28,109 bases of DNA, taken from an uncultured Burkholderiales bacterium. Its GTDB lineage: Bacteria > Pseudomonadota > Gammaproteobacteria > Burkholderiales > Burkholderiaceae_E. The stretch spans positions 1 through 28,109 of the forward strand of contig CAIKZV010000153.1 of NCBI GenBank assembly GCA_903831925.1. Direction: 5' to 3'. Shown here piece by piece: positions 4,327 to 28,109 of this stretch (the first letter of the stretch is position 1; each line of letters starts with the position of its first letter). Below the pieces are notes generated by a model. That model made no database searches, was not told the DNA's origin, and was given only the letters and a program-made list of their open reading frames with translations. Made by a program: the position numbers and the translations under genes.

Positions 4327-4388
4327 CGCGGTCCGCCCTGAATCATCGTCATCAGCGGCATCGTTGCGATGCAGCATGTCGAGTCCGC

Positions 4389-4417
4389 TTTATATGATGA
4401 ACAGCAAAGATCAGCAA
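4389..4417 (-). promoter_or_regulatory. Candidate sigma70 promoter for the H-NOX/kinase pair
   Basis: Minus strand TTGCTG-N17-TATAAA in the AT-richer intergenic gap, about 60 nt upstream of ATG 4326. Confidence 0.4.
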
Positions 4418-4450
4418 GCGATTGCCGTTGTCTGGCTGAGACTGCGTTCG

Positions 4451-4469
4451 GCGGGGCATCGACCCCCGC
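4451..4469 (-). terminator. GC hairpin just downstream of the EAL gene (possible weak terminator or mRNA-stability stem)
   Basis: GCGGGG-N7-CCCCGC, 4 nt after the stop at 4474. No U-tract follows. Confidence 0.3.
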
Positions 4470-4473
4470 TTGC

Positions 4474-6213: not shown

Positions 6214-6359
6214 GACCTGTTCTGATGAGATCTTGATTGCAGCCTTGACTGATGCTCCGATCCTAATGAAGGAGTCGTGACCGGCGGCGCGCGAACCGGG
6301 TGTTCGGCCGCTTTTGCCCTGCAAGCGGTCGGGTTGTCGGCAAATTGGCGCGTGCCAAC

Positions 6360-6390
6360 CTGACACCCGTGTTTGGTCGCGTGCTAGTAT
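6360..6390 (+). promoter_or_regulatory. Candidate sigma70 promoter (extended -10) for the P450 gene
   Basis: CTGACA (6360-6365), 19-nt spacer, TGc-TAGTAT (6382-6390); RBS AGGAG at 6407-6411 before ATG 6420. Confidence 0.3.
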
Positions 6391-6419
6391 TTTTGGCTTG
6401 AAAATCAGGAGACGCCGTC

Positions 6420-7715: not shown

Positions 7716-7729
7716 GTGTAGGCGCCGGT

Positions 7730-8551
7730 ATGCAGGTCATTATTCTCGGCAGCGGCTCGCCGCTGGTGACACCCGATCGCGCCGGTCCGTCGACGCTGGT
7801 GCGCATCGGCAAGACTGACCTGCTCTTTGACTGCGGCCGGGCGGTGCTGATGCGTGGTGCGGCAGTCGGCATGAATGCGCGCGAGCTCACGGCGCTGTTC
7901 GTGACCCATATGCACAGCGATCACACCACCGACTACAACGACGTCATCACCACCCGCTGGATTTCGAGCCCGCAGTCGAACCCGCTTGTGGCCTATGGGC
8001 CGACCGGATTCAAGCGCTTCACCGAGGCCACGCTGGCGATGCTCGATACCGACGTGCACTACCGCATGTCGCATCACGATGATCTGAATGAGGCCCCGAA
8101 GGTCACGGTGCGCGAGGTCGCGCCTGGGCTGGTCTTCGAGTCCGAAGGCATTCGCGTGTTCGCTGAGCCGACCGACCACAGCCCGGTTCATCCGACCATG
8201 GGTTTTCGCATCGAGGCGCAGGGCAAGGTGGTTGCCATTGCCGGTGACACCGTGCCCTGTGAAGGGCTGAGCCGGCTTTGCCGCGGTGCCGATGTCTATG
8301 TCCAGACCGTCATCCGTCGGGACATCATCGAGAAGGCGCCCTTCAAGCGTTTTCGCGACGTGCTCGATTACCACTCCGATGTCGCCCAGGCTGGAAAGAC
8401 AGCCGCCGAATGCGGCGTTCGAACGCTCGTGCTCAACCATCCGGTGCCGGCGCCACAGCCTGGCTCCGAGCCGCAGTGGATTGCCCTGGCCAAGGCTCAT
8501 TTCGCTGGCGAAGTGCTGCTCGCCACCGACCTTCTGACGGTCGACGCCTGA
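7730..8551 (+). CDS. MBL-fold metallohydrolase, RNase Z/AtsA(ElaC)-like
   Basis: ILGSGSP, LLFDCG, THMHSDH (HxHxDH), DH..., AGDT, LNHP. ATG 7730 is 14 nt after the P450 stop. Confidence 0.85.
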   Translation: MQVIILGSGSPLVTPDRAGPSTLVRIGKTDLLFDCGRAVLMRGAAVGMNARELTALFVTHMHSDHTTDYNDVITTRWISSPQSNPLVAYGPTGFKRFTEATLAMLDTDVHYRMSHHDDLNEAPKVTVREVAPGLVFESEGIRVFAEPTDHSPVHPTMGFRIEAQGKVVAIAGDTVPCEGLSRLCRGADVYVQTVIRRDIIEKAPFKRFRDVLDYHSDVAQAGKTAAECGVRTLVLNHPVPAPQPGSEPQWIALAKAHFAGEVLLATDLLTVDA

Positions 8552-8564
8552 GTCTTTCGGGCGC

Positions 8565-9428
8565 ATGCCCCAGAATGACGGGATGAAAACACCCAAGCGA
8601 CTTCAATCGCTGCTAGACGAAGGGCTGATCGACTCGGTCGTGAGGCAGCTGATGAGCGGCAAGGAAGCGACGGTCTATGTGGTGCGCTGCGCGGGCGAAA
8701 CCCTGTGCGCCAAGATCTACAAGGACGCCACCCAGCGCAGCTTTCGCCAGGCGGTCGACTACACCGAGAACCGCAAGGTCAAGAACAGCCGCCAGGCGCG
8801 GGCCATGGCCAAGGGCACGCGCTTCGGGCGCGAGTCTCAGGAGGCGGCCTGGCGAAGTGCCGAGGTTGATGCGCTCTACCGGCTGGCAGCGGCAGGCGTG
8901 CGTGTGCCGGCGCCACGCAATTTCTATGAGGGCGTCCTGCTCATGGAACTGGTCACCGATGAGCATGGCGATGCCGCACCGCGGCTCAATGATGTGATCT
9001 TCACGCCAGACGATGCGGTGCTTTATCACGGCGCCCTGATCGGCGAGGTGGTCCGCATGCTGTGCGCCGGCATCGTTCACGGCGACCTGTCCGAATTCAA
9101 CATTCTCCTGGCGGCCGACGGGCCGGTGATCATCGATCTGCCGCAGGCGGTCGATGCTGCGGGTAACAATCACGCCAATCGCATGCTGCTGCGGGATGTT
9201 GAAAATCTGCGCGATTTTTTCGGTCGCTTCGAGCCTTCGCTGCTCGCCACCGACTACGGCAACGAGATCTGGGATCTTTATGCGCGTGGCCTGCTGACGC
9301 CCGAATCCTCTCTCACCGGCCGCTTCGAGCATCGCACCGGGCCGGTCGATGTGCGCGATGTCATCGCGGTGATCGAAGATGCGCAAGTCCAGGAGGCCGC
9401 AAGACTGGCGCGACTCACGTCGACCTGA
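8565..9428 (+). CDS. Bacterial RIO1-family serine/threonine protein kinase
   Basis: LMSGKEATVY, CAKIY, LLMELV, catalytic loop VHGDLSEFNIL, IIDLPQAV. Start is ATG 8565 or 8583. Confidence 0.9.
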   Translation: MPQNDGMKTPKRLQSLLDEGLIDSVVRQLMSGKEATVYVVRCAGETLCAKIYKDATQRSFRQAVDYTENRKVKNSRQARAMAKGTRFGRESQEAAWRSAEVDALYRLAAAGVRVPAPRNFYEGVLLMELVTDEHGDAAPRLNDVIFTPDDAVLYHGALIGEVVRMLCAGIVHGDLSEFNILLAADGPVIIDLPQAVDAAGNNHANRMLLRDVENLRDFFGRFEPSLLATDYGNEIWDLYARGLLTPESSLTGRFEHRTGPVDVRDVIAVIEDAQVQEAARLARLTST

Positions 9429-9484
9429 GACCGAGGCGCGAAACCCGGTGCAATGCACCACTTTCTGTACATCGAGGCAACCCC

Positions 9485-9772
9485 ATGCTCGAATCAAGCA
9501 GTGATCCGTACGACATCCTCGGTGTTCCGTCGAGTGCCAGCACGGCCGATATCAAGCTCGCCTTTCGAAAAAAGGCGTCTTTCTTTCACCCGGATCGCAA
9601 CCCGGATGCCGATGCCGCGGCGCGTTTTCGTGATGCGCAGCAGGCCTACGAACTGCTGATCGACGAGGACCGGCGCCGGGCACACGACCAGAAACGACGC
9701 AAGCATCTCCTCGAGAATCCGCTCGAGACGGCGCGCGCCATGTTCCAAACCTATCTCGAACAGATCCGATGA
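9485..9772 (+). CDS. atcJ: Short stand-alone J-domain co-chaperone, AtcJ-like
   Basis: DPYDILGV...IKLAFRK...HPD(35-37)...F...QQAYELL; 95 aa; C-terminal NPLETARAMF gives P-X7-F, resembling the PX7W motif of AtcJ. First gene of a four-gene overlapping operon. The J-domain is certain; the symbol is inferred. Confidence 0.8.
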   Translation: MLESSSDPYDILGVPSSASTADIKLAFRKKASFFHPDRNPDADAAARFRDAQQAYELLIDEDRRRAHDQKRRKHLLENPLETARAMFQTYLEQIR

Positions 9773-10314
9773 AACTTTCCGACTATTTCTTTGAACTCGA
9801 AGAAAGCTATCGTGCCGATCTCGATGACCTGCGCTTCGATTCCGATGGCCGCGATGTCCTGCAGGCCAGGCTCAAGGACAAGCGCAGTCAGCTGTCGGCG
9901 CTCCTGCCGATGATCGGATTCGACCCGGTGCTGGTGGCACCGGTCTTTCACGGCGCCTTTGAATTTCCGGCGGGCGGCCATCAGACGGTCGCCGACCTGC
10001 TGAGCCAGTTTCCAGGTGAATTTGCACCCTGGCAGGATGTGGCGGCGGCGGTGACCGTGGCCGCCTGGGCGCAGCCGCTGGTCAAGACCGTGCTGGCCAA
10101 TGCTCATGGCGAGGATTTCCTGGCAACCGTCGTAGCGCTCGAATTTGCGCTCTCGCGCCGTCTCGGGCCGCGGGCTGAGCAGGCCGACGATGAGCGCGAT
10201 GATCATGAAGACGGCGATGATCGCGACGACAGCAGCGAGGACAGCGACGAGGGCGATCAGCTGAGCGAGGATTATCTCGAACAGCAGGGCTTTGACCGCA
10301 GGAGCAGCGAATGA
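9769..10314 (+). CDS. Hypothetical protein, second gene of the J-domain operon (AtcA position)
   Basis: ATGA overlaps at both ends; 181 aa; acidic linker followed by EDYLEQQGFDR. No recognisable catalytic motif; Atc identity rests on gene order only. Confidence 0.75.
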   Translation: MKLSDYFFELEESYRADLDDLRFDSDGRDVLQARLKDKRSQLSALLPMIGFDPVLVAPVFHGAFEFPAGGHQTVADLLSQFPGEFAPWQDVAAAVTVAAWAQPLVKTVLANAHGEDFLATVVALEFALSRRLGPRAEQADDERDDHEDGDDRDDSSEDSDEGDQLSEDYLEQQGFDRRSSE

Positions 10315-15732: not shown

Positions 15733-16632
15733 ATGAGACTTTCTTTCAACCTTGCAGCGAAAATCAGCATCGGCGTTTTGACGTCCTGGGTTTGCGCTTT
15801 TGCGTCAGCAGAAATGCCGGCGTCATTGCCGTCAGACTCACCGAGTCCGGTTCTGAAGTTCAATATCGTCGGCAGCGATTCGGGCATCAACTGGACGAGC
15901 GCCGACATCGGTTTTTCGCTCGATCGCAACAGCGGCGATTTCTCATTGGCCTCGCCTTATGCCTACTCGGCGGGTCGCAAGGTCACGGTCGATGGCGTCG
16001 AGCTGCCGGCCTTCGTGGTCAAGGTCGATCCGACCGATTCGCAAGGCAATCGGGTCTTCGACCGCGCTACCGGCGGCAATGTCGATCCGTTCATGAGCTA
16101 TGCCTACAGCATCACCAACAACACCTCGGGGACTCTGGCGGTCAGTGCCTATTTCACCTCGCCGATCATTCCCTCGGTCAATGGACAGGCCAACAACGTG
16201 AGTGCTCGCGCATCCGGCATCCTGGTCGATGCCACCGGCAACGGTGGCTCGCTGACCTACAGCCCGGGGACCGCGAGCTTTCAGAGTTTCGCGCTGTCTT
16301 CGCTGGTCAACGCGCCTCAGGGTGACGCGTCTTTCGTGAACGCAGGCGTGGATGTCGGTGCGGTGCAGTCGATTGCGGCGGGCGCTCCCGGTTCGGTGGC
16401 CTTCATCAACACGGTTCAGTCGGGTATCACCACAGGTCCGCAGGGTGTCTGGAACACCATGCAGATGTATGCGCACTTCACCCTGTCGGGCAGCGGCGAC
16501 ATCGCGCTGGTGACCGGCTATGGCGAGATCATCCCGATTCCCGAGCCTTCGGATCTGGCCTTCATGCTTTCCGGGCTGGTCGTCACCGCGTCGATGATGT
16601 CGCGCCGTCGTCGGGCATCCGCATACCTCTGA
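15733..16632 (+). CDS. PEP-CTERM sorting-domain secreted/surface protein
   Basis: N-terminal signal peptide (…VCAFASA|E), S/G/T/N-rich body, C-terminal IPEPS + hydrophobic helix + RRRR. Confidence 0.9.
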   Translation: MRLSFNLAAKISIGVLTSWVCAFASAEMPASLPSDSPSPVLKFNIVGSDSGINWTSADIGFSLDRNSGDFSLASPYAYSAGRKVTVDGVELPAFVVKVDPTDSQGNRVFDRATGGNVDPFMSYAYSITNNTSGTLAVSAYFTSPIIPSVNGQANNVSARASGILVDATGNGGSLTYSPGTASFQSFALSSLVNAPQGDASFVNAGVDVGAVQSIAAGAPGSVAFINTVQSGITTGPQGVWNTMQMYAHFTLSGSGDIALVTGYGEIIPIPEPSDLAFMLSGLVVTASMMSRRRRASAYL

Positions 16633-16699
16633 TGATCGGGGTTGGCCGGTTGTAAAGACTTGGGAGATGATTCGGGGTCATCAACCAAGCGTGATTCCC

Positions 16700-17869
16700 A
16701 TGTCTGCCATCGACCGCATCGCCCTGTTTCATGACGAGCTGACCGCCTTTCGGCGCGATATCCATGCCCATCCCGAACTCGGTTTCCAGGAGTCGCGCAC
16801 CGCAGAGCGGGTTGCGCAGGCGCTTGAGAGCTATGGCATCGAGGTGCATCGCGGCGTCGGTAAAACCGGTGTTGTTGGCGTCCTGAAGGCGGGCGCCTCG
16901 ATGCGATCGATTGGTCTGCGCGCCGACATGGACGCGCTGCCGATCCAGGAGGCCAACACCTTCGATCATCGTTCGCAGCATGCCGGTCGCATGCATGCCT
17001 GCGGTCACGACGGCCACACCACCATGCTGCTTGGCGCCGCCCGATATCTGGCAGCGACGCGCAATTTCGATGGCACGGTCCACTTCATCTTCCAGCCGGC
17101 CGAAGAGGGCCTGGGCGGGGCGAGGGCCATGCTCGACGATGGTCTGTTCACGCGCTTTCCGTGTGACTGGGTCTTCGGCATGCACAACCGCCCGAAATTG
17201 CCGATCGGGCAGTTTTGCGTGCGCTCCGGCGCGATGATGGCGGGCGGTGCTTTTTTTGATATCGACATCACGGGTGTGGGTTCGCATGGCGCGCGCCCCG
17301 AGGCCGGCATCGATTCGCTGATGGTGGGCGTACAGATCGCCTCGATGCTGCAGACCATCGTCTCGCGCAATGTGCGCCCGGTCGATACCGCGGTGGTGTC
17401 GGTCACCCAGTTTCATGCCGGCGATGCCTACAACGTGATTCCGCAGACTGCGCGCTTGTCGGGCACGGTGAGGGCCTTCTCTAAAGACGTGATGGCGCTG
17501 GTCGAGCGCAATATGCGCCGCATTGCCGGCGGCGTGGCCGAATCGATGGGTGCGACGGCAAGCGTGGACTTTCGCGTGAACTTCGGGCCCACGGTCAACG
17601 ATGCCGATGAAGCCGACTTCGCAGCCTCGGTGTGCGCCGAGCTGGTCGGCGCAGACAAGGTCGATCGCAACCCCCCGCTCATCATGGCCTCGGAAGATTT
17701 TTCCTTCATGCTCGATCGCGTGCCGGGCTGCTTCGTGAACATCGGCAATGGCGATGGCGACGGTGATTGCGAGGTGCACAATCCGGCCTATGACTTCAAC
17801 GATCAGGCGATTCCATTGGGCAGCGCCTTTTTTTCGCGGGCGGTCGAGCGCAAGCTCGCATTAGGCTGA
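16700..17869 (+). CDS. M20D amidohydrolase (hippurate hydrolase / aminoacylase-like)
   Basis: RRDIHAHPELGFQE, LRADMDALP, MHACGHDGH, FQPAEEG, GMHN, SEDFS, HNPAYDFND. Start placed at ATG 16700. Confidence 0.92.
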   Translation: MSAIDRIALFHDELTAFRRDIHAHPELGFQESRTAERVAQALESYGIEVHRGVGKTGVVGVLKAGASMRSIGLRADMDALPIQEANTFDHRSQHAGRMHACGHDGHTTMLLGAARYLAATRNFDGTVHFIFQPAEEGLGGARAMLDDGLFTRFPCDWVFGMHNRPKLPIGQFCVRSGAMMAGGAFFDIDITGVGSHGARPEAGIDSLMVGVQIASMLQTIVSRNVRPVDTAVVSVTQFHAGDAYNVIPQTARLSGTVRAFSKDVMALVERNMRRIAGGVAESMGATASVDFRVNFGPTVNDADEADFAASVCAELVGADKVDRNPPLIMASEDFSFMLDRVPGCFVNIGNGDGDGDCEVHNPAYDFNDQAIPLGSAFFSRAVERKLALG

Positions 17870-17939
17870 GCGCCGCGCGATCAGCGCAGCATCAGCCCAG
17901 GCTCAGCCCGATCATCGAGTCTGTCCGGAGACCGACACC

Positions 17940-19262
17940 ATGCGCAAAATGAGACTCGGCGCCTTCATGCGCCCGACCACGATTCACACCGGCGGCTGGC
18001 GTTATCCCGGCGGTTTGCCCGATGCCAACTTCAACTTCGAGCATCTCGCCCGGTTTACGCAGAAACTTGAAGCCGGCCGATTCGATGCGTTTTTCATGGC
18101 CGACCATCTGGCTGTGCTCAACATGCCGATCGAGGCGCTCAAGCGCAGCCATACCGTCACCTCGTTTGATCCGCTGACGCTGCTGCCGGCGCTGGCGGTG
18201 CTGACAAAGCACATCGGGCTGGTGGCCACCGCCTCGACCACCTTCGAAGAGCCCTACATCCTGGCGCGCAAATTTGCCTCGCTCGACCACCTGAGCGGCG
18301 GGCGTGCCGGCTGGAATGTCGTGACCACCTCCAATCCGGATGCCGCGCTCAACTTCGGCCGGGAAGATCACCTCGAACACGGCGAACGCTATCGTCGGGC
18401 ACGCGAGTTCGTTGATGTGGTGACCGGGCTGTGGGACTCCTTTGCCGATGATGCCTTCACGCGCGATGTGAAGACCGGGCTGTTTTTCGACCCGGAAAAA
18501 ATGCATGTGCTCGATCACAAGGGCGAATTCTTTTCGGTGCGCGGCCCGCTCAATGTGGCCCGTCCGGTGCAGGGCTGGCCGGTGATCGTGCAGGCCGGCG
18601 CGTCCGAGGCCGGCAAGCAGCTGGCCGCCGAAACCGCCGAGGTGGTCTTCACCGCGCAGGCCACGCTCGCCGCAGGCAAGGCTTTCTATCGTGACGTGAA
18701 GTCGCGAATGGATGCGATCGGACGTTCGCGCGAGCATCTGAAGATCCTGCCGGGTGCATTGGTGGTGGTCGGCGACACGATCGAGGAAGCGCGCGACAAG
18801 CGCCTGCTGCTCGACAGTCTGGTGCACTACGACAGCGCGATTGCATCGCTGTCGATTGCGCTCGGCCACGATGCCTCGGCCTTCGACCCGGATGCGCCAC
18901 TGCCCGATGACATCCCCGAGACCAATGCCAGCAAGAGCGGTCGCGAGCGCACGATTGCTTTGGCGCGCCGTGAACATCTCACCGTCCGGCAACTGGCGCA
19001 GCGGCTGGGCGGCTATGCCGGTCTGGCCTTCGTCGGCACACCCGCCAGCATCGCTGACGAGATGCAGGCCTGGATCGAAGAAGAGGGCAGTGACGGGTTC
19101 AACATCCTGTTTCCCTACCTGCCGGCCGGACTCGATGACATGGTCGACCGGGTGGTCCCTGAACTGCAGCGCCGCGGCCTTTTTCGTACCGAGTACGAAG
19201 GCGCCACGCTGCGTGAAAACCTCGGGCTGCCACGGCCTTCCAACCGCTTCTTTCCGGGCTGA
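17940..19262 (+). CDS. Luciferase-like flavin-dependent monooxygenase, NtaA/SnaA/DszA family
   Basis: FDAFFMADHL, FDPLTLL, ARKFASLDHLSGGRAGWNVVT, HKGEFFSVRGPLN, PVIVQAGAS, DGFN, VVPELQRRGLFRTEY. Confidence 0.92.
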   Translation: MRKMRLGAFMRPTTIHTGGWRYPGGLPDANFNFEHLARFTQKLEAGRFDAFFMADHLAVLNMPIEALKRSHTVTSFDPLTLLPALAVLTKHIGLVATASTTFEEPYILARKFASLDHLSGGRAGWNVVTTSNPDAALNFGREDHLEHGERYRRAREFVDVVTGLWDSFADDAFTRDVKTGLFFDPEKMHVLDHKGEFFSVRGPLNVARPVQGWPVIVQAGASEAGKQLAAETAEVVFTAQATLAAGKAFYRDVKSRMDAIGRSREHLKILPGALVVVGDTIEEARDKRLLLDSLVHYDSAIASLSIALGHDASAFDPDAPLPDDIPETNASKSGRERTIALARREHLTVRQLAQRLGGYAGLAFVGTPASIADEMQAWIEEEGSDGFNILFPYLPAGLDDMVDRVVPELQRRGLFRTEYEGATLRENLGLPRPSNRFFPG

Positions 19263-19361: not shown

Positions 19362-20600
19362 ATGACTGAAGCTCTCATCATCGACGCCTGCCGCACACCG
19401 CGCGGCATCGGCAAGGTCGGCAAAGGCGCCCTCGCCGACATGCATCCGCAGCATGTGGCCGCCAATGTGCTCAAGGCACTGGCCGCGCGCAACGATCTGA
19501 AGACCGCCGAGATTGACGACATCATCTGGGGCACCAGTTCGCAGCGCGGCCCGCAGGCGATGGACCTGGCACGCATGGCCGCACTCGACGCCGGCTTCGA
19601 TATCCGCGCAAGCGGCGTGACCCTCGATCGCTTCTGCGGCTCGGGCATCACCTCGGTCAGCATGGCGGCAGCCTCGATCATGGCCGGCATGGAAGACCTG
19701 ATGATCGCTGGCGGCTCCGAGATGATGTCGATGACCGGCCGTCGCGCGCCGGATGAAGGCCCGGCTCTGATGGATGCCGGCAATCTGCGTCTGCGCGCCT
19801 CACATCCGCAGTCGCACCAGGGTGTCTGTGCCGATGCAATTGCCACCATGGAAGGCATCTCGCGCCAGGCGCTCGACGAGCTCGCCCTGGTCAGCCAGCA
19901 GCGCGCCGCGCACGCGATCGCCAACGGTCACTTCAAGAAGAGCCTGATCCCGACCTTCAAGGCCGACGGCACGCTGGCGCTCGACCATGAAGAGTTTCCG
20001 CGTCCGCAGACCACGCTGCAGGGTCTGTCCGAAATCAAGCCGGCCTTCCCGGCGCTGGCCGATGTGCCGCTCGACGACAAGGGCAATACCTTCCGCAGCC
20101 TGATCCTGTCGAAGTATCCCGGCCTCGACATCAAGCATGTCCATCACGCCGGCAATTCGTCGGGTGTGGTCGATGGCGCGGGCGCCGTGCTGCTGGCATC
20201 GCCCGCCTATGCCAAAGCCAAGGGTCTGAAGCCTCGCGCCCGTATCGTGGCGATGGCCAATGTCGGCGATTGCCCAACGCTGATGCTCAACGCGCCGGTG
20301 CCGGCGGCCCGCAAGGTGCTGGCCAAAGCCGGCCTGACCCTCGATGACATTGATCTCTTCGAGATCAACGAGGCGTTTTCGGTGGTGGCCGAGAAGTTCA
20401 TCCGCGACCTCAAGCTTGATCGCGACAAGGTCAATGTGAATGGCGGCGCGATGGCGCTGGGCCATCCGATCGGCGGCACCGGTTCGATCCTGATCGGCAC
20501 CATCCTCGATGAACTCGAGCGTCGCGATCTGCGGCGCGGCCTGGTCACGATGTGTGCCGCCGGCGGCATGGCTCCGGCGATCATCATCGAGCGCCTCTGA
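19362..20600 (+). CDS. Thiolase (acetyl-CoA C-acyltransferase)
   Basis: IIDACRTP, catalytic RFCGSG, NSSGVVDGA, EINEAF, NVNGGAMALGHPIG, C-terminal MCAAGGMA. RBS AGGAG upstream. Confidence 0.95.
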   Translation: MTEALIIDACRTPRGIGKVGKGALADMHPQHVAANVLKALAARNDLKTAEIDDIIWGTSSQRGPQAMDLARMAALDAGFDIRASGVTLDRFCGSGITSVSMAAASIMAGMEDLMIAGGSEMMSMTGRRAPDEGPALMDAGNLRLRASHPQSHQGVCADAIATMEGISRQALDELALVSQQRAAHAIANGHFKKSLIPTFKADGTLALDHEEFPRPQTTLQGLSEIKPAFPALADVPLDDKGNTFRSLILSKYPGLDIKHVHHAGNSSGVVDGAGAVLLASPAYAKAKGLKPRARIVAMANVGDCPTLMLNAPVPAARKVLAKAGLTLDDIDLFEINEAFSVVAEKFIRDLKLDRDKVNVNGGAMALGHPIGGTGSILIGTILDELERRDLRRGLVTMCAAGGMAPAIIIERL

Positions 20601-20636
20601 TCGTCTGATCGCAATCTGATCCAAGGGACCCGCAAG

Positions 20637-21665
20637 ATGGGCGCAGCACTGGTTTTCGATGAATCACATCTGATGTCCGAGCATGCCTATGCCCGGCCGC
20701 TCGAGGCGGTCGGGCATCGCCTGCATGGCGGCTTCGATGCGGCAGGCGCCTACCAGTCGCCGCGCACGCTGGGCCGCTGGCCGGCGGTGCGGGGCTGGCA
20801 GCAGGCGCTGGCCGCCCGCGGCTGGCCCCTGATTGATGCCTCTGGCGCCCTGCTCACCATGGGCAACTATCCGAGCTTCGAGCAGCAGCGCCTGCTGCTG
20901 CAGTGGGGGTGCGGGCAAACGCTCTGGAATTCGCTGACGGTCACCGGCGTGGTCGAGGCGCGCGGACGCATTCTGGCCACGATTCCGGTGCCGAATTTTC
21001 AGTCCATCATCGAAGAAGACCTCAGCCAGACCACCGTCGGCCATCTGGGCAAGGGGCTGTTCAGGGCGCACGGCTTCGATGAGGGCGGTGTGCCCGAATC
21101 GGGCATCGGCGGACACGACACCATGTGGTTTGCGGTGCGCGACATGCTCTTCGGGCGCGACGCCTGGCCGATGCCCGAGGTGCCGCCGTCGCTGGCGCGG
21201 CCTGCCGGCGACCGCCTGCTGCCGATGATCGATGCGCCCTATGAGCAGATCATCGTCATGATGATGAACGTGCTGATGATCGAGATTCGTGCCGAGGCCT
21301 TCTTCAGCTTCTGCACGCGGGTCATGCGCGATCCGGCCTGCTTTTCCGATCGCCGCGAGACCGCCGAGCAGGCCGCGGTCATGGTCGAGCGCATCCGCGA
21401 AGACGAGCAGATCCATGTGGCCTATCTGCAGTCGGCGATTTCGGAGTTGCGCAGCTTCACCTTCAAGGCCAATGACGGTCGTCGCATTCCTGGCGAGCGT
21501 CTGCTCGATCCGCTGTGGCAGGGCTTCGTGCGCTGGCACTCGGTCGATACAGTGCAGCACACGCGCGCTCAGGCACGTGCCGCAATCGAAGCCACGTTGC
21601 GCGCCCTGCCGCAAGGCGAGGCAAAGCTTCAGGCATTCATGGCGCTGGAAACTTCCGGCGCCTGA
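20637..21665 (+). CDS. Hypothetical protein with a ferritin-like carboxylate/His (diiron) ligand pattern
   Basis: 342-aa ORF filling the gap between thiolase and ECH. Candidate ligands E107, D148-E149...H160, E216, D256-E257-x-x-H260. The gene is well supported; the function is inferred. Confidence 0.7.
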   Translation: MGAALVFDESHLMSEHAYARPLEAVGHRLHGGFDAAGAYQSPRTLGRWPAVRGWQQALAARGWPLIDASGALLTMGNYPSFEQQRLLLQWGCGQTLWNSLTVTGVVEARGRILATIPVPNFQSIIEEDLSQTTVGHLGKGLFRAHGFDEGGVPESGIGGHDTMWFAVRDMLFGRDAWPMPEVPPSLARPAGDRLLPMIDAPYEQIIVMMMNVLMIEIRAEAFFSFCTRVMRDPACFSDRRETAEQAAVMVERIREDEQIHVAYLQSAISELRSFTFKANDGRRIPGERLLDPLWQGFVRWHSVDTVQHTRAQARAAIEATLRALPQGEAKLQAFMALETSGA

Positions 21666-21732
21666 GCATCGGTTTGCAGACCCCGGCGCAGCTCGGGGCT
21701 GACTCAATACACGAGGATGAGGAGGAGACCCC

Positions 21733-22557
21733 ATGACTTACGAAGACGTGCTGTACCGGGTTGAGGACGGCATTGCCGTGATCACGCTCAATCGCCCCGA
21801 CAAGCTCAATGCCTGGCGTGCCGAGATGGACCGCGACGTGCGGGCCGCGATGAAGGCTGCCTCGTCTGACGAGGCAGTGCGAGTGATCGTGCTGACCGGC
21901 GCCGGGCGCGGTTTTTGCGCCGGCGCCGACATGAATAATCTGCAGTCGCTCGCCGGCAGCGGCGGCGCTGCTGCGCGCCCGCGTCCTGCGGTGCCCGAGC
22001 CCTTCGATGCGTCGGCGAGCGAGGACTTCAAGCGCCAGTATTCGTGGTTTCCATCGGTGCCGCGGCCGATCATCGCAGCCATCAACGGCCCGTGCGCGGG
22101 TCTCGGTCTGATCATGTCGCTCTATGCCGACATGCGCTTTGCCTCCGACAAAGCGGTTTTCACCACCGCCTTCGCACGACGCGGCCTGATCGCCGAGCAT
22201 GGCGTGTCTTGGCTGCTGCCGCGCCTGGTCGGCATGGCCCATGCCTGCGACCTGCTCTATTCGGCCCGCACCGTGCGGGCTCCCGAGGCGCTGGCCATGG
22301 GTCTGGTGAGTCGGGTCATCCCGGAAGACCAGTTCATGACCGAGGTGATGGCCTATGCCCGCATGCTGGCCACCGAGGCCTCGCCGCGCTCGATGCGCGA
22401 GATGAAGCGCGAGATGTGGCATGCGCAGTTCCAGACGCTCGCTCAGGCGATCGACGAGGCCAACGGCGACATGGCCGGCAGCTTCACCTCCGCTGACTTC
22501 AAGGAGGGCGTGGCCCACTTCGTCGAAAAGCGCAAACCGCAGTTCACCGGTCGCTGA
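21733..22557 (+). CDS. Enoyl-CoA hydratase/isomerase (crotonase superfamily)
   Basis: ITLNRPDKLNA, LTGAGRGFCAGADM, IAAINGPCAGLG, GLIAEHG, DFKEGVAHFVEKRKPQF. Strong RBS GAGGAGGAG. Confidence 0.95.
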   Translation: MTYEDVLYRVEDGIAVITLNRPDKLNAWRAEMDRDVRAAMKAASSDEAVRVIVLTGAGRGFCAGADMNNLQSLAGSGGAAARPRPAVPEPFDASASEDFKRQYSWFPSVPRPIIAAINGPCAGLGLIMSLYADMRFASDKAVFTTAFARRGLIAEHGVSWLLPRLVGMAHACDLLYSARTVRAPEALAMGLVSRVIPEDQFMTEVMAYARMLATEASPRSMREMKREMWHAQFQTLAQAIDEANGDMAGSFTSADFKEGVAHFVEKRKPQFTGR

Positions 22558-22568
22558 AGCGTGCCTCG

Positions 22569-24176
22569 ATGAGCGCGATGAACGCACCGGTCGATGTGCT
22601 GATCATCGGCGCAGGTGCGTCGGGTGCGGCCGTGGCCTGGAGTCTTGCCGAGACGCGGATGCGCATCCTGTGTCTGGAGCAGGGCGACTGGGTCAAGCCC
22701 ACCGACTATCCGAGCAATTTCCGCGACTATGAAGCGCGGCAGATGGGCGAATTCCATTTCAGCCCGAACCGTCGCGCCAGCGACGTCGACTATCCGGTCA
22801 ACGAAGACGACTCGCCGATCAAGGTCGCCAACTTCAACGGCGTGGGCGGTGGCACGGTGCTGTATGCCGGTCACTTCCCGCGCTTTCATCCCTCTGATTT
22901 CCGGGTGCGAAGCCTCGATGGCGTGGCCGACGACTGGCCGATCGACTACCGCACGCTCGAGCCCTATTACGCCGAAAACGACCGGATGATGGGTGTCTCG
23001 GGGCTGGCCGGCGATCCGGCCTATCCGCCCAAGACGCCGGTGATGCCACCGCTGCCGCTGGGTCGCACCGGCATGGCACTCGGCCGGGGCTTCAACGATC
23101 TCGGCTGGCACTGGTGGCCCTCCGACAGCACGATTGCCACGCAGGAGTACGGCGGGCGCGCGCCCTGCATCAACCTCGGCCAGTGCATCGGCGGCTGCGC
23201 CCAGGGCGCCAAGGCCAGCACCGACATCACCTACTGGCCCGAGGCACTGCGGGCCGGCGTGATGCTGCGAACCCGCTGCCGAGTGCGCGAAATCACTACC
23301 AACGAAACCGGCATGGCAAGCGGGGTGATCTATTACGACGAGCACGGCATCGAGCAGTTTCAGCCGGCCGAGGTGGTGATCGTGGCCTGCAACGGCATCG
23401 GCACGCCGCGCATCCTGCTCAACTCAGCCTCCTCGCGCCACCCCGATGGGCTGGCCAATTCGAGCGGCATGGTCGGGCGCAATCTGATGTTCCATCCCTA
23501 TGCCGGCGTTTATGGCCGCTTCGAGGCGGCGCTTGATGGCCATCGTGGCCCGATCGATGCGGTCTGGAGCCAGCAGTTCTACGAGACCGACCCATCGCGC
23601 GGCTTCGTGCGCGGCTATACCTTCGAGACCACTCGCGGACGCGGCCCGGTGCAGACCGCCCTGATCGGCATGCTCTCGGGCAAGCTGCCGATCGGGGCCG
23701 GCCATCACGCCGCCTACCGCGGTCTCTTCGATCGCATCGCCGGGCTGGTGGCGATCTGCGAAGACCTTCCGGAAGCCCACAACCGGGTCACGCTCGATCC
23801 GGTGCTCAAAGACTCGAGCGGCATTGCAGCCCCGAAAGTGTCCTACACCTTGAGCGAGAACAGCCTGAAAATGCTGGCGCACAGCGTGGCGCGGGCGACC
23901 GAGGTGCTGCGTGCAGCCGGCGCGGTCGATGTCTCGGTGACCTCGCCGCTGTCGATCGGCGGCTGGCACAACATGGGCACTGCCCGCATGGGGACCGACC
24001 CCGAGCGTTCGGTGGTCAATGAATGGGGCCGCAGTCACGACGTCAAGAATCTTTTCATCGTCGACGGCAGCATTTTCGTGACCTCGGCCGGCGTCAATCC
24101 GACCAGCACGATCCAGGCGCTGGCGCTTTATGTCGCCGACAACATCAAGCGCCGCCTGGCCAATCTTTTCGACTGA
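22569..24176 (+). CDS. GMC-family FAD oxidoreductase (gluconate/glucose dehydrogenase large-subunit type)
   Basis: DVLIIGAGASG, GVGGGTVLY, CX5CX3C motif, GRNLMFHP, HNMGTARMG, NLFIVDGS, NPTSTIQALA. Confidence 0.92.
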   Translation: MSAMNAPVDVLIIGAGASGAAVAWSLAETRMRILCLEQGDWVKPTDYPSNFRDYEARQMGEFHFSPNRRASDVDYPVNEDDSPIKVANFNGVGGGTVLYAGHFPRFHPSDFRVRSLDGVADDWPIDYRTLEPYYAENDRMMGVSGLAGDPAYPPKTPVMPPLPLGRTGMALGRGFNDLGWHWWPSDSTIATQEYGGRAPCINLGQCIGGCAQGAKASTDITYWPEALRAGVMLRTRCRVREITTNETGMASGVIYYDEHGIEQFQPAEVVIVACNGIGTPRILLNSASSRHPDGLANSSGMVGRNLMFHPYAGVYGRFEAALDGHRGPIDAVWSQQFYETDPSRGFVRGYTFETTRGRGPVQTALIGMLSGKLPIGAGHHAAYRGLFDRIAGLVAICEDLPEAHNRVTLDPVLKDSSGIAAPKVSYTLSENSLKMLAHSVARATEVLRAAGAVDVSVTSPLSIGGWHNMGTARMGTDPERSVVNEWGRSHDVKNLFIVDGSIFVTSAGVNPTSTIQALALYVADNIKRRLANLFD

Positions 24177-24180
24177 GCTG

Positions 24181-24657
24181 ATGACGCCTGTTGCCATTCA
24201 AAGCGCCGCGATCGATTCGCCGCTGTCACCGGGCCAGAGGCGCTCGCTGCTGGCGGTGCTGGGCACCATGATTCCGGCAAGCGACGCCTTCGAGGTGCCG
24301 GGCGCCGATGATCCGCTGATCGTGGCCGACCTCCTCAATTCGCTCAAGGCGCAGGCCGCAGCCCTCATCACCGCACTCGATCGGCTCGATGCGTTGTGCG
24401 GGCAGACCTTCCATACGCTGGCGGCCGATGCGCAGCCGCAGGCGCTCGATGATTTCAGGCGCGCCGACATGAAGCACTTCGCGCTGCTGGTCACCCTGTG
24501 CGTGCAGTGCTACTACCGCGATGACCGGGTGATGCGATCGCTTGGCATGGAGGCGCGCGCGCCCTTTCCGAAGGGCTTCGAGGTGCCTGCCGGCGACTAC
24601 GAATTGCTGGATCCGGTGCGCGCGCGCGGCCCGATCTGGCGCGATTCCCCCGGCTGA
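24181..24657 (+). CDS. Small partner subunit of the GMC dehydrogenase (gluconate 2-DH subunit-3-like)
   Basis: Starts 4 nt after the GMC stop; L..V...MIPA...PGA, YYRDDRVMRSLG, PFPKGF, LLDPVRARG. Start placed at ATG 24181. Confidence 0.7.
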   Translation: MTPVAIQSAAIDSPLSPGQRRSLLAVLGTMIPASDAFEVPGADDPLIVADLLNSLKAQAAALITALDRLDALCGQTFHTLAADAQPQALDDFRRADMKHFALLVTLCVQCYYRDDRVMRSLGMEARAPFPKGFEVPAGDYELLDPVRARGPIWRDSPG

Positions 24658-24666
24658 TCAGTCCGG

Positions 24667-25947
24667 TCAGGTCACCGCATGGCGCTGGGCAAAACGCGCC
24701 TCTCGCCACTGCCCGCTTTGCATCACCTGATGCAGCTGATCGACCGCCTGCCAGACATCGGCATGACCGGTGTAAAGCGGGGCAAATCCGAATCGCAGGA
24801 TGTCGTGCTGATGCTTGCCGTCGCCGGCGCGAAAGTCGCCGATCACGCCGCGCTCGATCAGGGCCTGCACGATGGCCCAGGCGCCTTCTGCGCGGCTCAG
24901 GCTGACCTGCGATCCGCGCCGCTGCTCATCGGCGGGCGTGGCGATCGCAAAGCCATGCCCCTGCAGGCGCTCCTGCACGAGCGACATGAAGAGCGAGGTC
25001 AGCGCGAGCGACTTGCGCCGCAGTGACGCCATGCCGCCAAGGCCTTCGGCCGCGAGCAGGGTATCGAGTCCGCAATCGAGTGCGGCAAGGCCCAGGATCG
25101 ACGGCGTGCCGCTCTGGAATCCATTGACGCCTGCAGCAGGGATGTAATCGGTCGTGAACGCAAAGGGCGCTGCATGCCCCCACCAGCCGGTCAGGGGCTG
25201 CCTGACGCGATCGGCGTGACGCGGATGCATCCAGAGGAAGGCCGGCGCGCCGGGCCCGCCGTTGAGGTATTTGTAGCCGCAACCGACCGCAAAGTCGGCT
25301 CCCGCCGCATGCAGATCGACCGGCACCGCGCCGGCGCTGTGAGCGAGGTCCCAGACGGTCAGGATGCCGGCGTCATGCGCCTGCGCGCACACGGCGGCCA
25401 TGTCGAGCATCGCGCCGCTGCGGTAGTTGATATGGGTGAGCATCAGCACCGCGACGTCGTCGCGCAATGCTGCGTCCAGTTCATGGCTTTCGACCAGGCG
25501 CAGCGTCAGGCCGCGATCCCGACACAGCGACTGCGCGATATAGAGGTCGGTGGGAAAATTGCCGCGCTCGCTCAGGATTGCGGTTCGGCGCGGATCAGCG
25601 GCGGCAATGTTCAGGGCTGCACTAAGCGTCTTGTAGAGATTGATCGAGGTGCTGTCGGCGGCCACCACCTCGCCGCGCTGTGCACCGATCAGACGCGCGA
25701 TCTTGTCGCCGACCTGCTGCGCCAGACCGAGCCAGCCGGCGGTGTTCCAGCTGGTGATCAGGCCCTTGCCCCATTCTTCGTTCAGCGTCTGCGCGATGCG
25801 TCCGGGGGTGGCCACCGGCAGCGGCCCGAGCGAATTGCCGTCGAGGTAGACGACCCCTTCCGGCAGTGAAAACTGCCCGCTCAGCGCCGCGAGCGGATCC
25901 TGGCGATCGAGGGCCTCGCAGTCGGCGCGAGTGCGCGCCTGCCTCAT
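24667..25947 (-). CDS. kynU: Kynureninase (PLP-dependent)
   Basis: DRQDPLA, YLDGNSLG, NFPTDLY, WDLAHSAGA, GCGYKYLNGGPG, RRGSQVS, RFGFAPLY. Confidence 0.93.
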   Translation of the reverse strand: MRQARTRADCEALDRQDPLAALSGQFSLPEGVVYLDGNSLGPLPVATPGRIAQTLNEEWGKGLITSWNTAGWLGLAQQVGDKIARLIGAQRGEVVAADSTSINLYKTLSAALNIAAADPRRTAILSERGNFPTDLYIAQSLCRDRGLTLRLVESHELDAALRDDVAVLMLTHINYRSGAMLDMAAVCAQAHDAGILTVWDLAHSAGAVPVDLHAAGADFAVGCGYKYLNGGPGAPAFLWMHPRHADRVRQPLTGWWGHAAPFAFTTDYIPAAGVNGFQSGTPSILGLAALDCGLDTLLAAEGLGGMASLRRKSLALTSLFMSLVQERLQGHGFAIATPADEQRRGSQVSLSRAEGAWAIVQALIERGVIGDFRAGDGKHQHDILRFGFAPLYTGHADVWQAVDQLHQVMQSGQWREARFAQRHAVT

Positions 25948-27203
25948 CCCGCGCCATTTCGCGGCACGTCGCGATAGGGTTTGTCGCTATCGATGCTCGG
26001 CTCCTTCGGCATGCCGAGCACGCGCTCGGCAATGATGTTGCGCTGGATCTCGTCGGTGCCGCCTGCGATCGAGGTGGCCGGCACCGAGATCAGGATCTCG
26101 GCGATCGTGCCGGCATGCGGACCATCGGCGCCAGCCAGCAAGGAGTCGGCGCCGCTCAGCAGGGTATGCACCCGTGCTGCCGCGCGCGCGATATGGCTGG
26201 CCGCGAGCTTGCCGAGCGAGCCTTCCGGGCCTTGCGGGCGACCCTGTTCCTGTGCACTGCGCGCACGGCGTGCGGTCCATTCAGCCGACTTCGACAGGGT
26301 GAGCAGGCGCGCGATTTCCTGGCGCACCGCCGGGTCATCGAGCTTGCCGGTTTCTTTCGCCCGCGGAATGATCAGATCGATCCGGCCCGCGCGATTCGGA
26401 TACCACTTGTAGGGCGCAAGCGCGATTTCGGCTTCGGCGCGCTCCTCGTCAAAGATGCGACCGGGCCGATCAGATTTCGCAGCCCCCCAGGAGCGCAGCG
26501 AATCGGCGGCGCGCCGCTCGTGCATCAGCGTGGTAGTGGCCACCGCCCAACCCTTGCCTTCGCCTGCCACCAGCCAGTTGGCCGGTACGGTCGCATCGGT
26601 GATGAAGACCTGGTTGAAGGTGGCATGGCCGTTCATCTGCTTGAGCGGTTGCACCGTGACGCCTGGCTGATGCATGTCGATGATGAAAAAGGACAGGCCG
26701 GCATGCTTGGTCTTGTCCCAGTCGGTGCGCGCCAGAAGCAGCCCGAAGTCGGCTTTCTGCGCGCCCGAGGTCCAGAGCTTCTGGCCGTTGATGATGTCGT
26801 GGTCGCCCTGGCGGTCGGCGCGGGTCACCGCGCCGGCGGCGTCCGACCCGCTGCCGGGTTCGCTGAAGAGCTGACACCAGGCTTCCTCGCCGGTCATGCT
26901 GGGGCGCAAAAAACGTTTTTTCTGCTCGTCGGTGCCGTGCGCCAGGATGGTGGCTGCGGCCAGCACGCGAATGCCGACCCGAGCTACGCCGACCGCACCG
27001 ATGCGCTTGAATTCTTCTTCGACGATCGGCTGCAACCCGACCGGCAGGTTGCGCCCATACCACTCGGTCGGCCAGTGCGGTGTGCCCCAGCCTGCGTCCA
27101 TCAGCTTGTTGCGCCAGTCGACCAGGCCGCTGTCGGGGTTCCAGTTGGCCTCGAGCCAGGCGCGCACTTCGGCGCGCACGGAGGATTCTGTCTGTTCGGT
27201 CAT
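25944..27203 (-). CDS. Acyl-CoA dehydrogenase family protein (probable catalytic subunit of a heteromeric pair)
   Basis: WCQLFSEPGSGSD, INGQKLWTS, FNQVF, TTLMHER, IAGGTDEIQRNIIAERVLG. RBS GAGGAG overlaps the upstream stop. Confidence 0.92.
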   Translation of the reverse strand: MTEQTESSVRAEVRAWLEANWNPDSGLVDWRNKLMDAGWGTPHWPTEWYGRNLPVGLQPIVEEEFKRIGAVGVARVGIRVLAAATILAHGTDEQKKRFLRPSMTGEEAWCQLFSEPGSGSDAAGAVTRADRQGDHDIINGQKLWTSGAQKADFGLLLARTDWDKTKHAGLSFFIIDMHQPGVTVQPLKQMNGHATFNQVFITDATVPANWLVAGEGKGWAVATTTLMHERRAADSLRSWGAAKSDRPGRIFDEERAEAEIALAPYKWYPNRAGRIDLIIPRAKETGKLDDPAVRQEIARLLTLSKSAEWTARRARSAQEQGRPQGPEGSLGKLAASHIARAAARVHTLLSGADSLLAGADGPHAGTIAEILISVPATSIAGGTDEIQRNIIAERVLGMPKEPSIDSDKPYRDVPRNGAG

Positions 27204-27216
27204 GTCGTGTGTCTCC

Positions 27217-28109
27217 TCAAGCGGTCGCGTTGCTGGCGGGGGTGGGCGCGGCCATCTGCGCCATCATGCGTTCGCGGTGCAGATGCGCATCGCCGAACAG
27301 CGCCTCCGAACTCTTGGCCCGCTTGAACCACAGGTGCGTGTCGTTGTCCCAGGTAAAGCCGATGCCGCCATGGATCTGGATGGCGTGGATGGCGGTCTGC
27401 AGATAGGCGTCGCTTGCGCAGGCCTTGGTGAGTGATGCGGTGACCGCGATATCGGCATCCTGTTCGTCGAGCGCGGCAGCCGCGAAATAGGCCGCCGATT
27501 TGGCGAGTTCGACTTCGAGCAGCATGTCGGCCTGCTTGTGTTTCATCGACTGGAAAGCACCGATCACCCGGCCGAACTGCATGCGCATCATCGCGTAGGC
27601 GAGCGCGTCTTCGCGAAGGCGCGCCGCACCGCCGACCATCTCATTGGACAGGCAGATCGCGGCCTCGATCATGGTTTTCTCAAACGCAGCAGCAGCCTTG
27701 CCTTCCTCGCCGAGCAACTGGGCCTCGACATCGCTGAAGGTGAGGCGCGCAAGCTTGCGGGTCGGATCAAGCGTGGTGAGCGCACGGCGCGACAGCCCCG
27801 ATGCAGTGCCCTGAACGTTAAAGAGCGACAGGCCATCGTTGCCCGATGTGCCGGGGGCGCGGGCCAGCACCACGATCAGGTCGGCGCTGTGGCCATCGAG
27901 CACGAAGCTCTTGTGGCCGTTTAGCTGCCAGCGGTTGCCCGACTTCGTTGCGGTCAGCGTTGTGGCGGCAGCGTCCCACGAGCCGCCGTCTTCGGTGCTC
28001 GCCAGGGTGGCAATCGTCTCGCCCGAAGCGATCCCGGGCAACAGCGCCTGCTGCTGCATCGGCGTGCCGGCATTCAGGATGGCGCCGGCGCCCAGCACGG
28101 TGGAGGCGA
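27217..28109 (-). CDS. Acyl-CoA dehydrogenase family protein, C-terminal part (gene starts beyond the window end)
   Basis: Frame stays open to the window edge; LNGHKSFV, EMVGGA, RMQFGRVIGAFQSMKH, AIQIHGGIGFTWD...WFKRA. Confidence 0.9.
   Translation of the reverse strand, partial: ASTVLGAGAILNAGTPMQQQALLPGIASGETIATLASTEDGGSWDAAATTLTATKSGNRWQLNGHKSFVLDGHSADLIVVLARAPGTSGNDGLSLFNVQGTASGLSRRALTTLDPTRKLARLTFSDVEAQLLGEEGKAAAAFEKTMIEAAICLSNEMVGGAARLREDALAYAMMRMQFGRVIGAFQSMKHKQADMLLEVELAKSAAYFAAAALDEQDADIAVTASLTKACASDAYLQTAIHAIQIHGGIGFTWDNDTHLWFKRAKSSEALFGDAHLHRERMMAQMAAPTPASNATA

Follow-up and report, generated by a model that had tools for sequence, protein, structure and literature searches.

Ferritin-like diiron enzymes have repeatedly given new chemistry, such as alkane formation, N-oxygenation, halogenation and, as the latest case, the cleavage of acyl chains by BioE, and the DExxH form of their metal-binding motif is known from ribonucleotide reductase (RNR) R2, MMOH and the desaturases. 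In this study we analyzed a 28,109-nucleotide stretch of DNA from an uncultured Burkholderiales bacterium, here called the window, and in particular one of its genes, the product of which we refer to as X. The predicted structure of X is closest, at the level of the fold only, to those of the MiaE- and ADO-like diiron enzymes. MiaE is the tRNA ms2i6A37 hydroxylase, and PDB entry 8fhc is a MiaE-like protein described as 'Protein 41 with aldehyde-deformylating activity'. The small ferritin-like diiron oxygenase BioE, an ADO-like enzyme, cleaves C14-C18 acyl thioesters, whether of CoA or of ACP (acyl carrier protein), to pimeloyl-CoA or pimeloyl-ACP (PMC12704756). As described below, we consider it likely that X is a cytoplasmic protein from an unnamed and widespread family in the ferritin-like dimetal-carboxylate superfamily, which carries out an O2-activating dimetal oxidation and whose usual setting is a TetR-controlled module containing X, in many cases a short-chain dehydrogenase/reductase (SDR), and a luciferase-like monooxygenase (LLM).

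With regard to the putative metal site, we determined the conservation of each residue in a set of 309 distinct full-length homologues. The gene and the residues concerned are listed below, with the number of homologues in which each residue is kept.

20637-21665, plus strand: X, 342 residues, member of an unnamed ferritin-like, putative dimetal-carboxylate family with a MiaE/ADO-like core
20955-20957, plus strand: E107, proposed ligand on helix A (residues 94-115), kept in 305 of 309
21042-21071, plus strand: H136 to H145, extra conserved histidines on helix B1; H136 kept in 308 and H145 in 307 of 309
21078-21083, plus strand: D148-E149, which supply the 'DE' of the first DExxH where helix B1 (134-150) ends; D148 kept in 309 and E149 in 308 of 309
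21084-21113, plus strand: G150-G159, Gly-rich loop inside the first ExxH; the Glu-to-His spacing is 11 in X
21114-21116, plus strand: H160, which completes the split first ExxH as its His and opens helix B2 (160-172), kept in 309 of 309
21282-21284, plus strand: E216, proposed ligand on helix C (200-231), kept in 305 of 309
21402-21416, plus strand: D256-E257-Q-I-H260, which form the second DExxH and lie on helix D (237-273); D256 kept in 306, E257 in 304 and H260 in 307 of 309

All of the proposed ligands that an earlier note on this DNA had picked out (E107, E149, H160, E216 and E257xxH260, with spacings of 42 and 41 residues) are thus present, and they are kept in 304-309 of the 309 sequences. 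Since the mean column identity is 33% in the 42-sequence alignment A1, the six-ligand pattern is far beyond chance. That is, the X family carries the two-fold E...(D)ExxH...E...(D)ExxH ligand set of the ferritin-like dimetal-carboxylate superfamily. An Asp residue precedes both ligand glutamates (D148 and D256), and the motif is therefore the DExxH form. The spacing between E107 and E149 is 42 in 289 of 302 sequences, that between E216 and E257 is 41 (209 sequences) or 37 (84 sequences), and that between E257 and H260 is 3, while the linker between the two motif halves varies from 55 to 85 residues. The other near-invariant residues are H30, Y39, R43, R47, W54, H136, H145, W164, R168, D169 and E270.

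The EQIH at residue 257 is the sole canonical ExxH in X, and the segment that corresponds to the first one, residues 148-160, reads DEGGVPESGIGGH. The earlier note had suggested that the first ExxH is split by a Gly-rich insertion. We examined the distance from the Glu of the 'DE' to the invariant His in 362 sequences, and found it to be 11 in 203 sequences including X, 9 in 123, 10 in 8, 12-15 in 24, 5 in one and 3 in three. The three members with a distance of 3 (P0194, P0221 and P0282) have AHARDEAGH or AHALDELGH, a canonical ExxH; P0194 has AHARDEAGH. In the AlphaFold2 model of P0194 (pLDDT 96.2), one helix, residues 132-161, runs through E146xxH149. In the model of X, helices 134-150 and 160-172 are separated by the Gly-rich loop, so that the helix is broken at 150-160, and in most members helix B is likewise interrupted, after its Glu and before its His, by a Gly-rich loop of 6-12 residues. 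Because the loop-less members carry DEAGH or DELGH on one continuous helix, the earlier note was right that the first ExxH contains an insertion. When the loop is removed, helix B reads HxxxExxH, in which H145 stands four residues, or one turn, before E149. H145 might serve as a seventh ligand, or it might lie in the second sphere.

The AlphaFold2 model of X has a pLDDT of 95.8 and a pTM of 0.93. Each of its helices A (94-115), B (134-172), C (200-231) and D (237-273) carries one ligand element. The B-C connection is long and the C-D hairpin is short, which is the ferritin-like topology of a four-helix bundle with one long crossover, and the predicted catalytic core has the MiaE-type fold. The Foldseek lists for the X and P0194 models are dominated by diiron proteins, although no match to either model in the PDB reached E <= 0.001. 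For P0194, the Foldseek probability was 0.99 with 8fhc and 0.95-0.97 with MiaE, and the target-normalised TM was 0.58-0.61. VIA-align gave 13.1 for 8fhc (root-mean-square deviation (rmsd) 3.2 Å, 199 of 213 residues), 12.2 for MiaE 8afj (rmsd 3.1 Å, 184 of 197 residues) and 12.1 for the ADO-type 5ux1. The values for the heme-oxygenase-like proteins were 12.1 (HrmI), 11.6 (UndA) and 11.4 (CADD); those for R2lox and RNR R2, aligned along the whole model, were about 11-11.7, and those for ToMO, MMOH, CmlI, AurF and BoxB were 8.8-11.2.

The relation to known diiron proteins was also seen, weakly, at the level of single residues. When a hidden Markov model (HMM) of the family was searched against PDB sequences, bacterioferritins were matched at E 0.016-0.075, with DEaiH placed on D126-E127-x-x-H130 of their helix D, that is, E257 and H260 on E127 and H130; the same search also matched a designed diiron protein and RNR R2. 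We then aligned the 309-sequence alignment with 15 bacterioferritins of Burkholderiales by hhalign (P 0.0056; residues 92-273 aligned to 11-143). These were taken from other genomes of the order, since a search of the genome to which the window belongs gave no PF00210; one of the 15 comes from the unpublished genome G423 (L174), on which no conclusion rests. In this alignment H160 falls on H54, E216 on E94, E257 on E127 and H260 on H130, and E149 is displaced by the insertion. With 22 MiaE sequences the hhalign probability was 8.5% (P 0.004). Here E107 falls on E122, the single-Glu ligand of MiaE, and H160 on H154; the "VVEARG" of helix A lies on the MiaE ligand helix "FIEARS", and H160 on the His of the MiaE "EARH". 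In a second and weaker alignment (P 0.066), these MiaE residues are matched by E216, E257 and H260 instead. Both halves of X thus map to the same residues of MiaE, as is expected because the fold is internally two-fold.

No significant match of the X family to any curated clan family was obtained, and the best PDB profile match was that at E 0.016. Ferritin_2 of Pfam was weakly matched by two of 42 members (best E 0.0013) and Ribonuc_red_sm by one (E 0.21), and phmmer of X against the PDB gave only a chance-level match, to a designed diiron protein (E 4.3). In the ESM Atlas, which is without X itself and was queried with the homologue P0036, the nearest named clusters were ferritin-like ones, namely those of the RNR small chain, DUF455, AurF and FA_desaturase_2, all with lead-level scores (0.77 for FA_desaturase_2). 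Taken together, these weak alignments would place every proposed ligand except the displaced E149 on an established ligand position.

X itself has no match in Pfam or NCBIfam, even at E <= 1. Its family is nevertheless large. A word-indexed search gave at least 1,417 clusters (90% identity) at E <= 1e-3 among the candidates scored, all of about 340 residues, with no Pfam domain and with every given name being "hypothetical protein". When 1.84 billion representatives of clusters at 50% identity were scanned exhaustively with HMMER, 455 of them passed E <= 1e-3, and 78 passed E <= 1e-30. Relatives of X occur in at least 467 GTDB species genomes. The hosts are mostly Alphaproteobacteria (Stellaceae, Rhizomicrobium/Micropepsaceae, Parvibaculum and Caulobacteraceae) with few Burkholderiales, and a cultured one is Parvibaculum sedimenti HXT-9. 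Among 400 evenly sampled other genomes of the window's phylum there was one additional copy; it belongs to the unpublished genome G383 (locus L003), which is also one row of the tree described below and on which no conclusion rests. Within Burkholderiales, nine of 24 further genomes from the window's genus carried X, and the 16 other genera sampled gave no copy. No fused or longer forms were found, which is weak evidence, and a plasmid collection gave no match for X or the homologue P0189. In the literature on ferritin-like proteins with LLM, SDR or TetR, and on PDB 7BIP and 8FHC, no description of the family was found. We think that the X family is a real, so far undescribed ferritin-like dimetal family, with neither a name nor a curated model.

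We next describe the genes that accompany X in other genomes. The loci were retrieved by motif patterns from two branches of the family (alignments A2 and A3), so that the counts are not those of a random family sample. Open reading frames (ORFs) were called mechanically, neighbouring ORFs were clustered and then compared with Pfam, and each count refers to loci with enough flanking sequence. The survey took in 77 loci from Alphaproteobacteria and others, and 80 loci of a divergent branch sampled from metagenomes.

In the alphaproteobacterial set, a TetR gene was directly upstream of X in 42 of 79 loci, an SDR gene directly downstream in 55 of 79, and an LLM gene after the SDR gene in 33 of 68. 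In the metagenome branch, the members of which are about 30% identical to X, an LLM gene follows 6-185 nt after X in 37 of 59 loci, and a divergent TetR gene precedes X in 29 loci, with housekeeping genes beyond. The LLM of this branch is orthologous to that of the alphaproteobacterial loci (52-61% identical). Since an LLM follows X in both the alphaproteobacterial and the divergent branch, the LLM is the partner of X throughout the family. Among solved structures, the nearest relatives of this LLM are the RslO-type LLMs and bacterial luciferase.

Three further observations were made at these loci. In 35 of 77 loci, the strand of X also carries, some 3.8 kb upstream of it, a gene for a large subunit of the molybdopterin-binding aldehyde-oxidase/xanthine-dehydrogenase family, which may be a further member of the module; an example is the region 4413-10277 of the Parvibaculum sedimenti HXT-9 locus L048, where the X orthologue is at 8001-8993. 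Locus L079 has tandem X paralogues (8001-9011 and 9105-10106; 51% and 49% identical to the X of the window), followed by SDR and LLM genes. Five contigs with TetR-X-SDR (L022, L023, L025, L063 and L070) come from metagenome-assembled genomes (MAGs) labelled 'uncultured Flavobacteriaceae'; they branch among Rhizomicrobium/Micropepsaceae, and the labels are probably wrong.

The earlier note had described X as a diiron enzyme acting on a CoA thioester in connection with beta-oxidation. The class is supported by the ligands and by the MiaE/ADO/R2-type structural neighbours; the CoA thioester and beta-oxidation part is not supported for the family, the usual neighbours of which are TetR, SDR and LLM genes. 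The lack of a link between the homologues and CoA-metabolism genes at the family level is the very finding that the earlier note had named as speaking against its proposal. A lineage-specific CoA role of X in Burkholderiales is possible.

In the window, X stands among the following genes, in addition to the row given above.

17940-19262, plus strand: FMN-dependent LLM of the NtaA/DmoA family (TIGR03860, 560 bits)
19362-20600, plus strand: thiolase, PRK06025-type acetyl-CoA C-acetyltransferase (Pfam Thiolase_N and Thiolase_C; NF004682, 775 bits, above cut-off)
21733-22557, plus strand: enoyl-CoA hydratase (ECH), PRK06210 type (NF004857, 383 bits), with a strong GGAGGAG ribosome-binding site
22569-24176, plus strand: FAD oxidoreductase of the GMC family (GMC_oxred_N and GMC_oxred_C)
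24181-24657, plus strand: small subunit, weakly similar to gluconate-2-dehydrogenase subunit 3 (PF13618, E 6.6e-4, below cut-off), with its ATG at 24181
25944-28098, minus strand: two acyl-CoA dehydrogenase (ACAD) genes, a pimC-like large subunit and a second ACAD

The run from the thiolase to the small subunit is as the earlier note had claimed, both in gene identities (Pfam and NCBIfam) and in gaps (six-frame ORF list), which are 36 nt between thiolase and X, 67 nt between X and ECH, 11 nt between ECH and GMC, and 4 nt between GMC and the small subunit. The thiolase, X and ECH genes are co-directional, each with its own ribosome-binding site, and a promoter and terminator scan revealed no promoter- or terminator-like site within the intergenic gaps of the run. 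Judging from this arrangement, X is probably co-transcribed with the thiolase and ECH genes in this Burkholderiales genus. The N-terminus of the small subunit, GQRRSLLAVLGTMIPASDA, is a twin-arginine-like leader, because of which the GMC/small-subunit pair is probably exported by the twin-arginine translocation (Tat) system.

The thiolase-X-ECH run was reproduced in three independent lake MAGs (L004-L006), where X is 96-98% identical, and among the surveyed loci a thiolase gene adjoins X only in these three. In a second lineage of the same genus (L007 and L008; X 76-77% identical), X is alone on its strand with no thiolase gene, an 85%-identical ECH gene is convergent to it, and the other strand carries, upstream of X, genes for an acyl-CoA synthetase and a hydroxyisobutyrate-dehydrogenase-like protein. 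In the remaining 72 genome loci, a thiolase, ECH or GMC gene in operon position was found in none.

An orthologue of the partner LLM was not found in the window's genome, which is 91.5% complete; the best match was 30% identical. The NtaA/DmoA-type LLM of the window was considered as such an orthologue and rejected, since it belongs to a different subfamily, shows no orthology and is absent from L005 and L006. This LLM and an M20 amidohydrolase gene, which stand upstream of the thiolase gene and together take up 16667-19262 of the plus strand, look like a small indel-polymorphic cassette: L004 has both genes, L006 has the M20 gene only and L005 has neither, and the flanking genes are 96-98% identical across L004-L006. 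An antisense ORF (20664-21734, minus strand, 356 residues) spans all of X. It was rejected as a real gene and regarded as a shadow ORF of a high-GC coding frame, because the plus frame has more than 1,400 homologues and a model with a pLDDT of 96.

Elsewhere in the window, a 299-residue ORF (15733-16632, plus strand) without a Pfam or NCBIfam match is 85-87% conserved in the three sister MAGs and always stands at the 5' end of the gene run there. At 2453-7715, the minus strand carries genes for an H-NOX (haem-NO-binding) protein, a hybrid histidine kinase and a GGDEF/EAL protein; the plus strand carries a cytochrome P450 gene and a metallo-beta-lactamase-fold gene, which adjoin these minus-strand genes. 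A 681-residue ORF at 415-2460 has no Pfam match.

The phylogeny (FastTree, 158 sequences, midpoint-rooted for drawing only) bears on the origin of this copy. The four Burkholderiales rows (support 100) nest in a 14-row Stellaceae/"Cybelea" clade (support 99), in which the members around the Burkholderiales copies have TetR-X-SDR-LLM contexts. This nesting, together with the patchy and genus-restricted distribution, leads us to think that the freshwater Burkholderiales genus probably got X from Alphaproteobacteria, and that X was secondarily inserted among CoA genes. In this genus, X would have lost its LLM partner and would now stand between the thiolase and ECH genes.

We now return to the reading of X as a member of the new dimetal family. 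In this reading, the core of X (about residues 65-320) would be a MiaE/ADO-type four-helix bundle, which comes after an N-terminal segment of some 90 residues peculiar to the family. Its proposed site would consist of E107 on helix A, D148-E149...H160 on helix B, E216 on helix C and D256-E257-x-x-H260 on helix D, that is, a classical E...DExxH...E...DExxH set, and would hold two metals, Fe/Fe or Mn/Fe. It appears rather likely that X binds two metal ions and activates O2, and the family probably consists of oxygenases or oxidases. The most likely reaction would be the oxidation of a small substrate, probably a hydrophobic one, through hydroxylation, desaturation or cleavage of a C-C bond. It probably works with the flavin-dependent luciferase-like oxidoreductase, because the gene is normally found in the TetR-controlled X-(SDR)-LLM module. 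In such a module, X might hydroxylate a C-H bond, the SDR might oxidise the resulting alcohol, and the LLM might oxygenate the aldehyde or ketone. Only tentatively do we extend this to both contexts, as a route from an alkyl C-H to the alcohol (by X), to the carbonyl, to an acid or ester, and then through activation to beta-oxidation; in the window the GMC enzyme might replace the SDR.

Several points weigh against the reading as a dimetal oxidation enzyme of such modules. In the hhalign alignment with bacterioferritins, E107 does not fall on E18, in what is the low-confidence N-terminal part of that alignment. No conserved electron-transfer partner (ferredoxin or reductase) was found beside X in the surveyed loci, and in Caulobacteraceae X occurs in unrelated contexts. 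The hydroxylase-SDR-LLM scheme was drawn from domain types only. In the window, the GMC/small-subunit pair, apparently being Tat-exported, may stand outside the pathway of X; because of this apparent export, the pair is perhaps not part of one cytoplasmic pathway with the thiolase and ECH.

The absence of a conserved reductase also agrees with the idea that X binds metal without oxidising a substrate, as a ligand-binding, sensing, or iron- or peroxide-handling protein in the manner of bacterioferritin and rubrerythrin, or of R2lox, for which we know of no established function, or as an accessory subunit of the LLM. The tight pairing of X with the LLM, with gaps down to 6 nt, could reflect a complex. 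However, a metabolic step is favoured by the TetR-controlled operon of catabolic type, in which an SDR and an LLM are also encoded, and the core, of monomer size, is nearer to enzymes (MiaE and ADO) than to the cage-forming ferritins. Moreover, no fused X-LLM forms were found, and X persists alone in lineages without the LLM. We regard a non-enzymatic X as quite unlikely. Less likely still is that X is a heme-oxygenase-like diiron oxidase (HDO) of the UndA, BesC, SznF or CADD type and not ferritin-like. The HDOs have a set of three histidines and three carboxylates on three core helices, with HxxxD/ExxH on the last. HrmI, UndA and CADD scored near MiaE in VIA-align. The conserved pattern of X is the two-fold E...DExxH, which is spread over four helices that include one long crossover. 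Four residues ahead of E257, position 253 is taken by Ile or Val and not by an HDO ligand. The profile comparisons connect X with bacterioferritin, MiaE, RNR R2 and Ferritin_2, and PF14518 gave no such connection. We regard this possibility as highly improbable.

The CoA proposal deserves more weight. According to it, X would act on an acyl- or aryl-CoA thioester as an oxygenase, desaturase or chain-cleaving enzyme and would feed the hydratase, the thiolase and the ACADs. The short gaps of the thiolase-X-ECH run and the two ACAD genes nearby agree with this, as does the second Burkholderiales lineage, in which the 85%-identical ECH gene adjoins X as well and an acyl-CoA synthetase gene is present. 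BioE, an ADO-like diiron oxygenase, offers a precedent (PMC12704756), the core of X being also ADO/MiaE-like; other precedents are PaaA, BoxB and acyl-ACP desaturase. However, the CoA context is confined to one genus, in which the gene was probably acquired, so that the proposal draws only on a local and derived context, and the family-wide neighbours are TetR, SDR and LLM and not CoA enzymes. Even in L007 and L008 the ECH gene is convergent and the thiolase gene is missing. In addition, X has no Pfam match to PaaA_PaaC or FA_desaturase_2, and the window holds no partners of the PaaB/C/E or BoxA type. Thus, a CoA-thioester enzyme seems to us unlikely. We attach a similarly low likelihood to a bolder combination, namely that the X family is a new class of O2-activating dimetal enzymes, each acting in an obligate pair with a dedicated LLM, that this pair brings about a so far undescribed oxidative transformation widespread among soil and freshwater bacteria, and that in this Burkholderiales genus X alone was captured into a beta-oxidation cluster for BioE-like or desaturase-like acyl-CoA chemistry.

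The X family is thus large, has no database model and no studied member, and lives in soil and freshwater bacteria. The near-invariant motif, the loop in the ExxH, the confident model, the flavoenzyme partner and the repressor together make the family a tractable candidate for a new oxidative reaction; the cultured host Parvibaculum sedimenti HXT-9 is at hand, and the inducer could be sought by way of the TetR regulator. The result from the window also carries a warning, that is, the substrate should not be read from the local thiolase and ECH neighbours.

Finally, we compared X with the named systems. Neither X nor 42 members of its family matched the HDO family (PF14518) or the acyl-ACP/CoA desaturases (PF03405). 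PaaA (PF05138) and BoxB likewise gave no Pfam match; their partners PaaBCDE and BoxA are absent from the window, and the family context of X is not CoA-related. The structural similarity of X to PaaA, BoxB and the acyl-ACP desaturases is much weaker than that to MiaE and ADO. For the Ribonuc_red_sm system (PF00268), the rmsd was 4.5-5 Å with about 10% identity, and apart from the single member mentioned above there was no match. AurF and CmlI have a third histidine, which in AurF is on the last helix. H145 of X recalls this residue, but it is on helix B, in the other half of the bundle; X gave no match to PF11583, and aminoarene pathway genes were not seen near X.

As for BioE, which we compared by description only, it is a dimeric protein of about 25 kDa encoded in biotin operons with a MocR-type regulator, whereas X has 342 residues and is linked to TetR and LLM; no bio genes were seen in the window. 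The comparison with MiaE is the closest. No match to PF06175 was obtained at E <= 1 for X or the 42 members, and the identity was 9-19%. In contrast to MiaE and 8fhc, X is about 140 residues longer, owing to the N-terminal segment and a C-terminal helix. The hairpin spacings are 42 and 41 in X and 31 and 29 in MiaE, helix B of X has the insertion, and X is found in an operon of catabolic type with no link to tRNA modification. In conclusion, the X family is new within a well-known superfamily, and has an N-terminal segment, a split motif and an LLM partner of its own.

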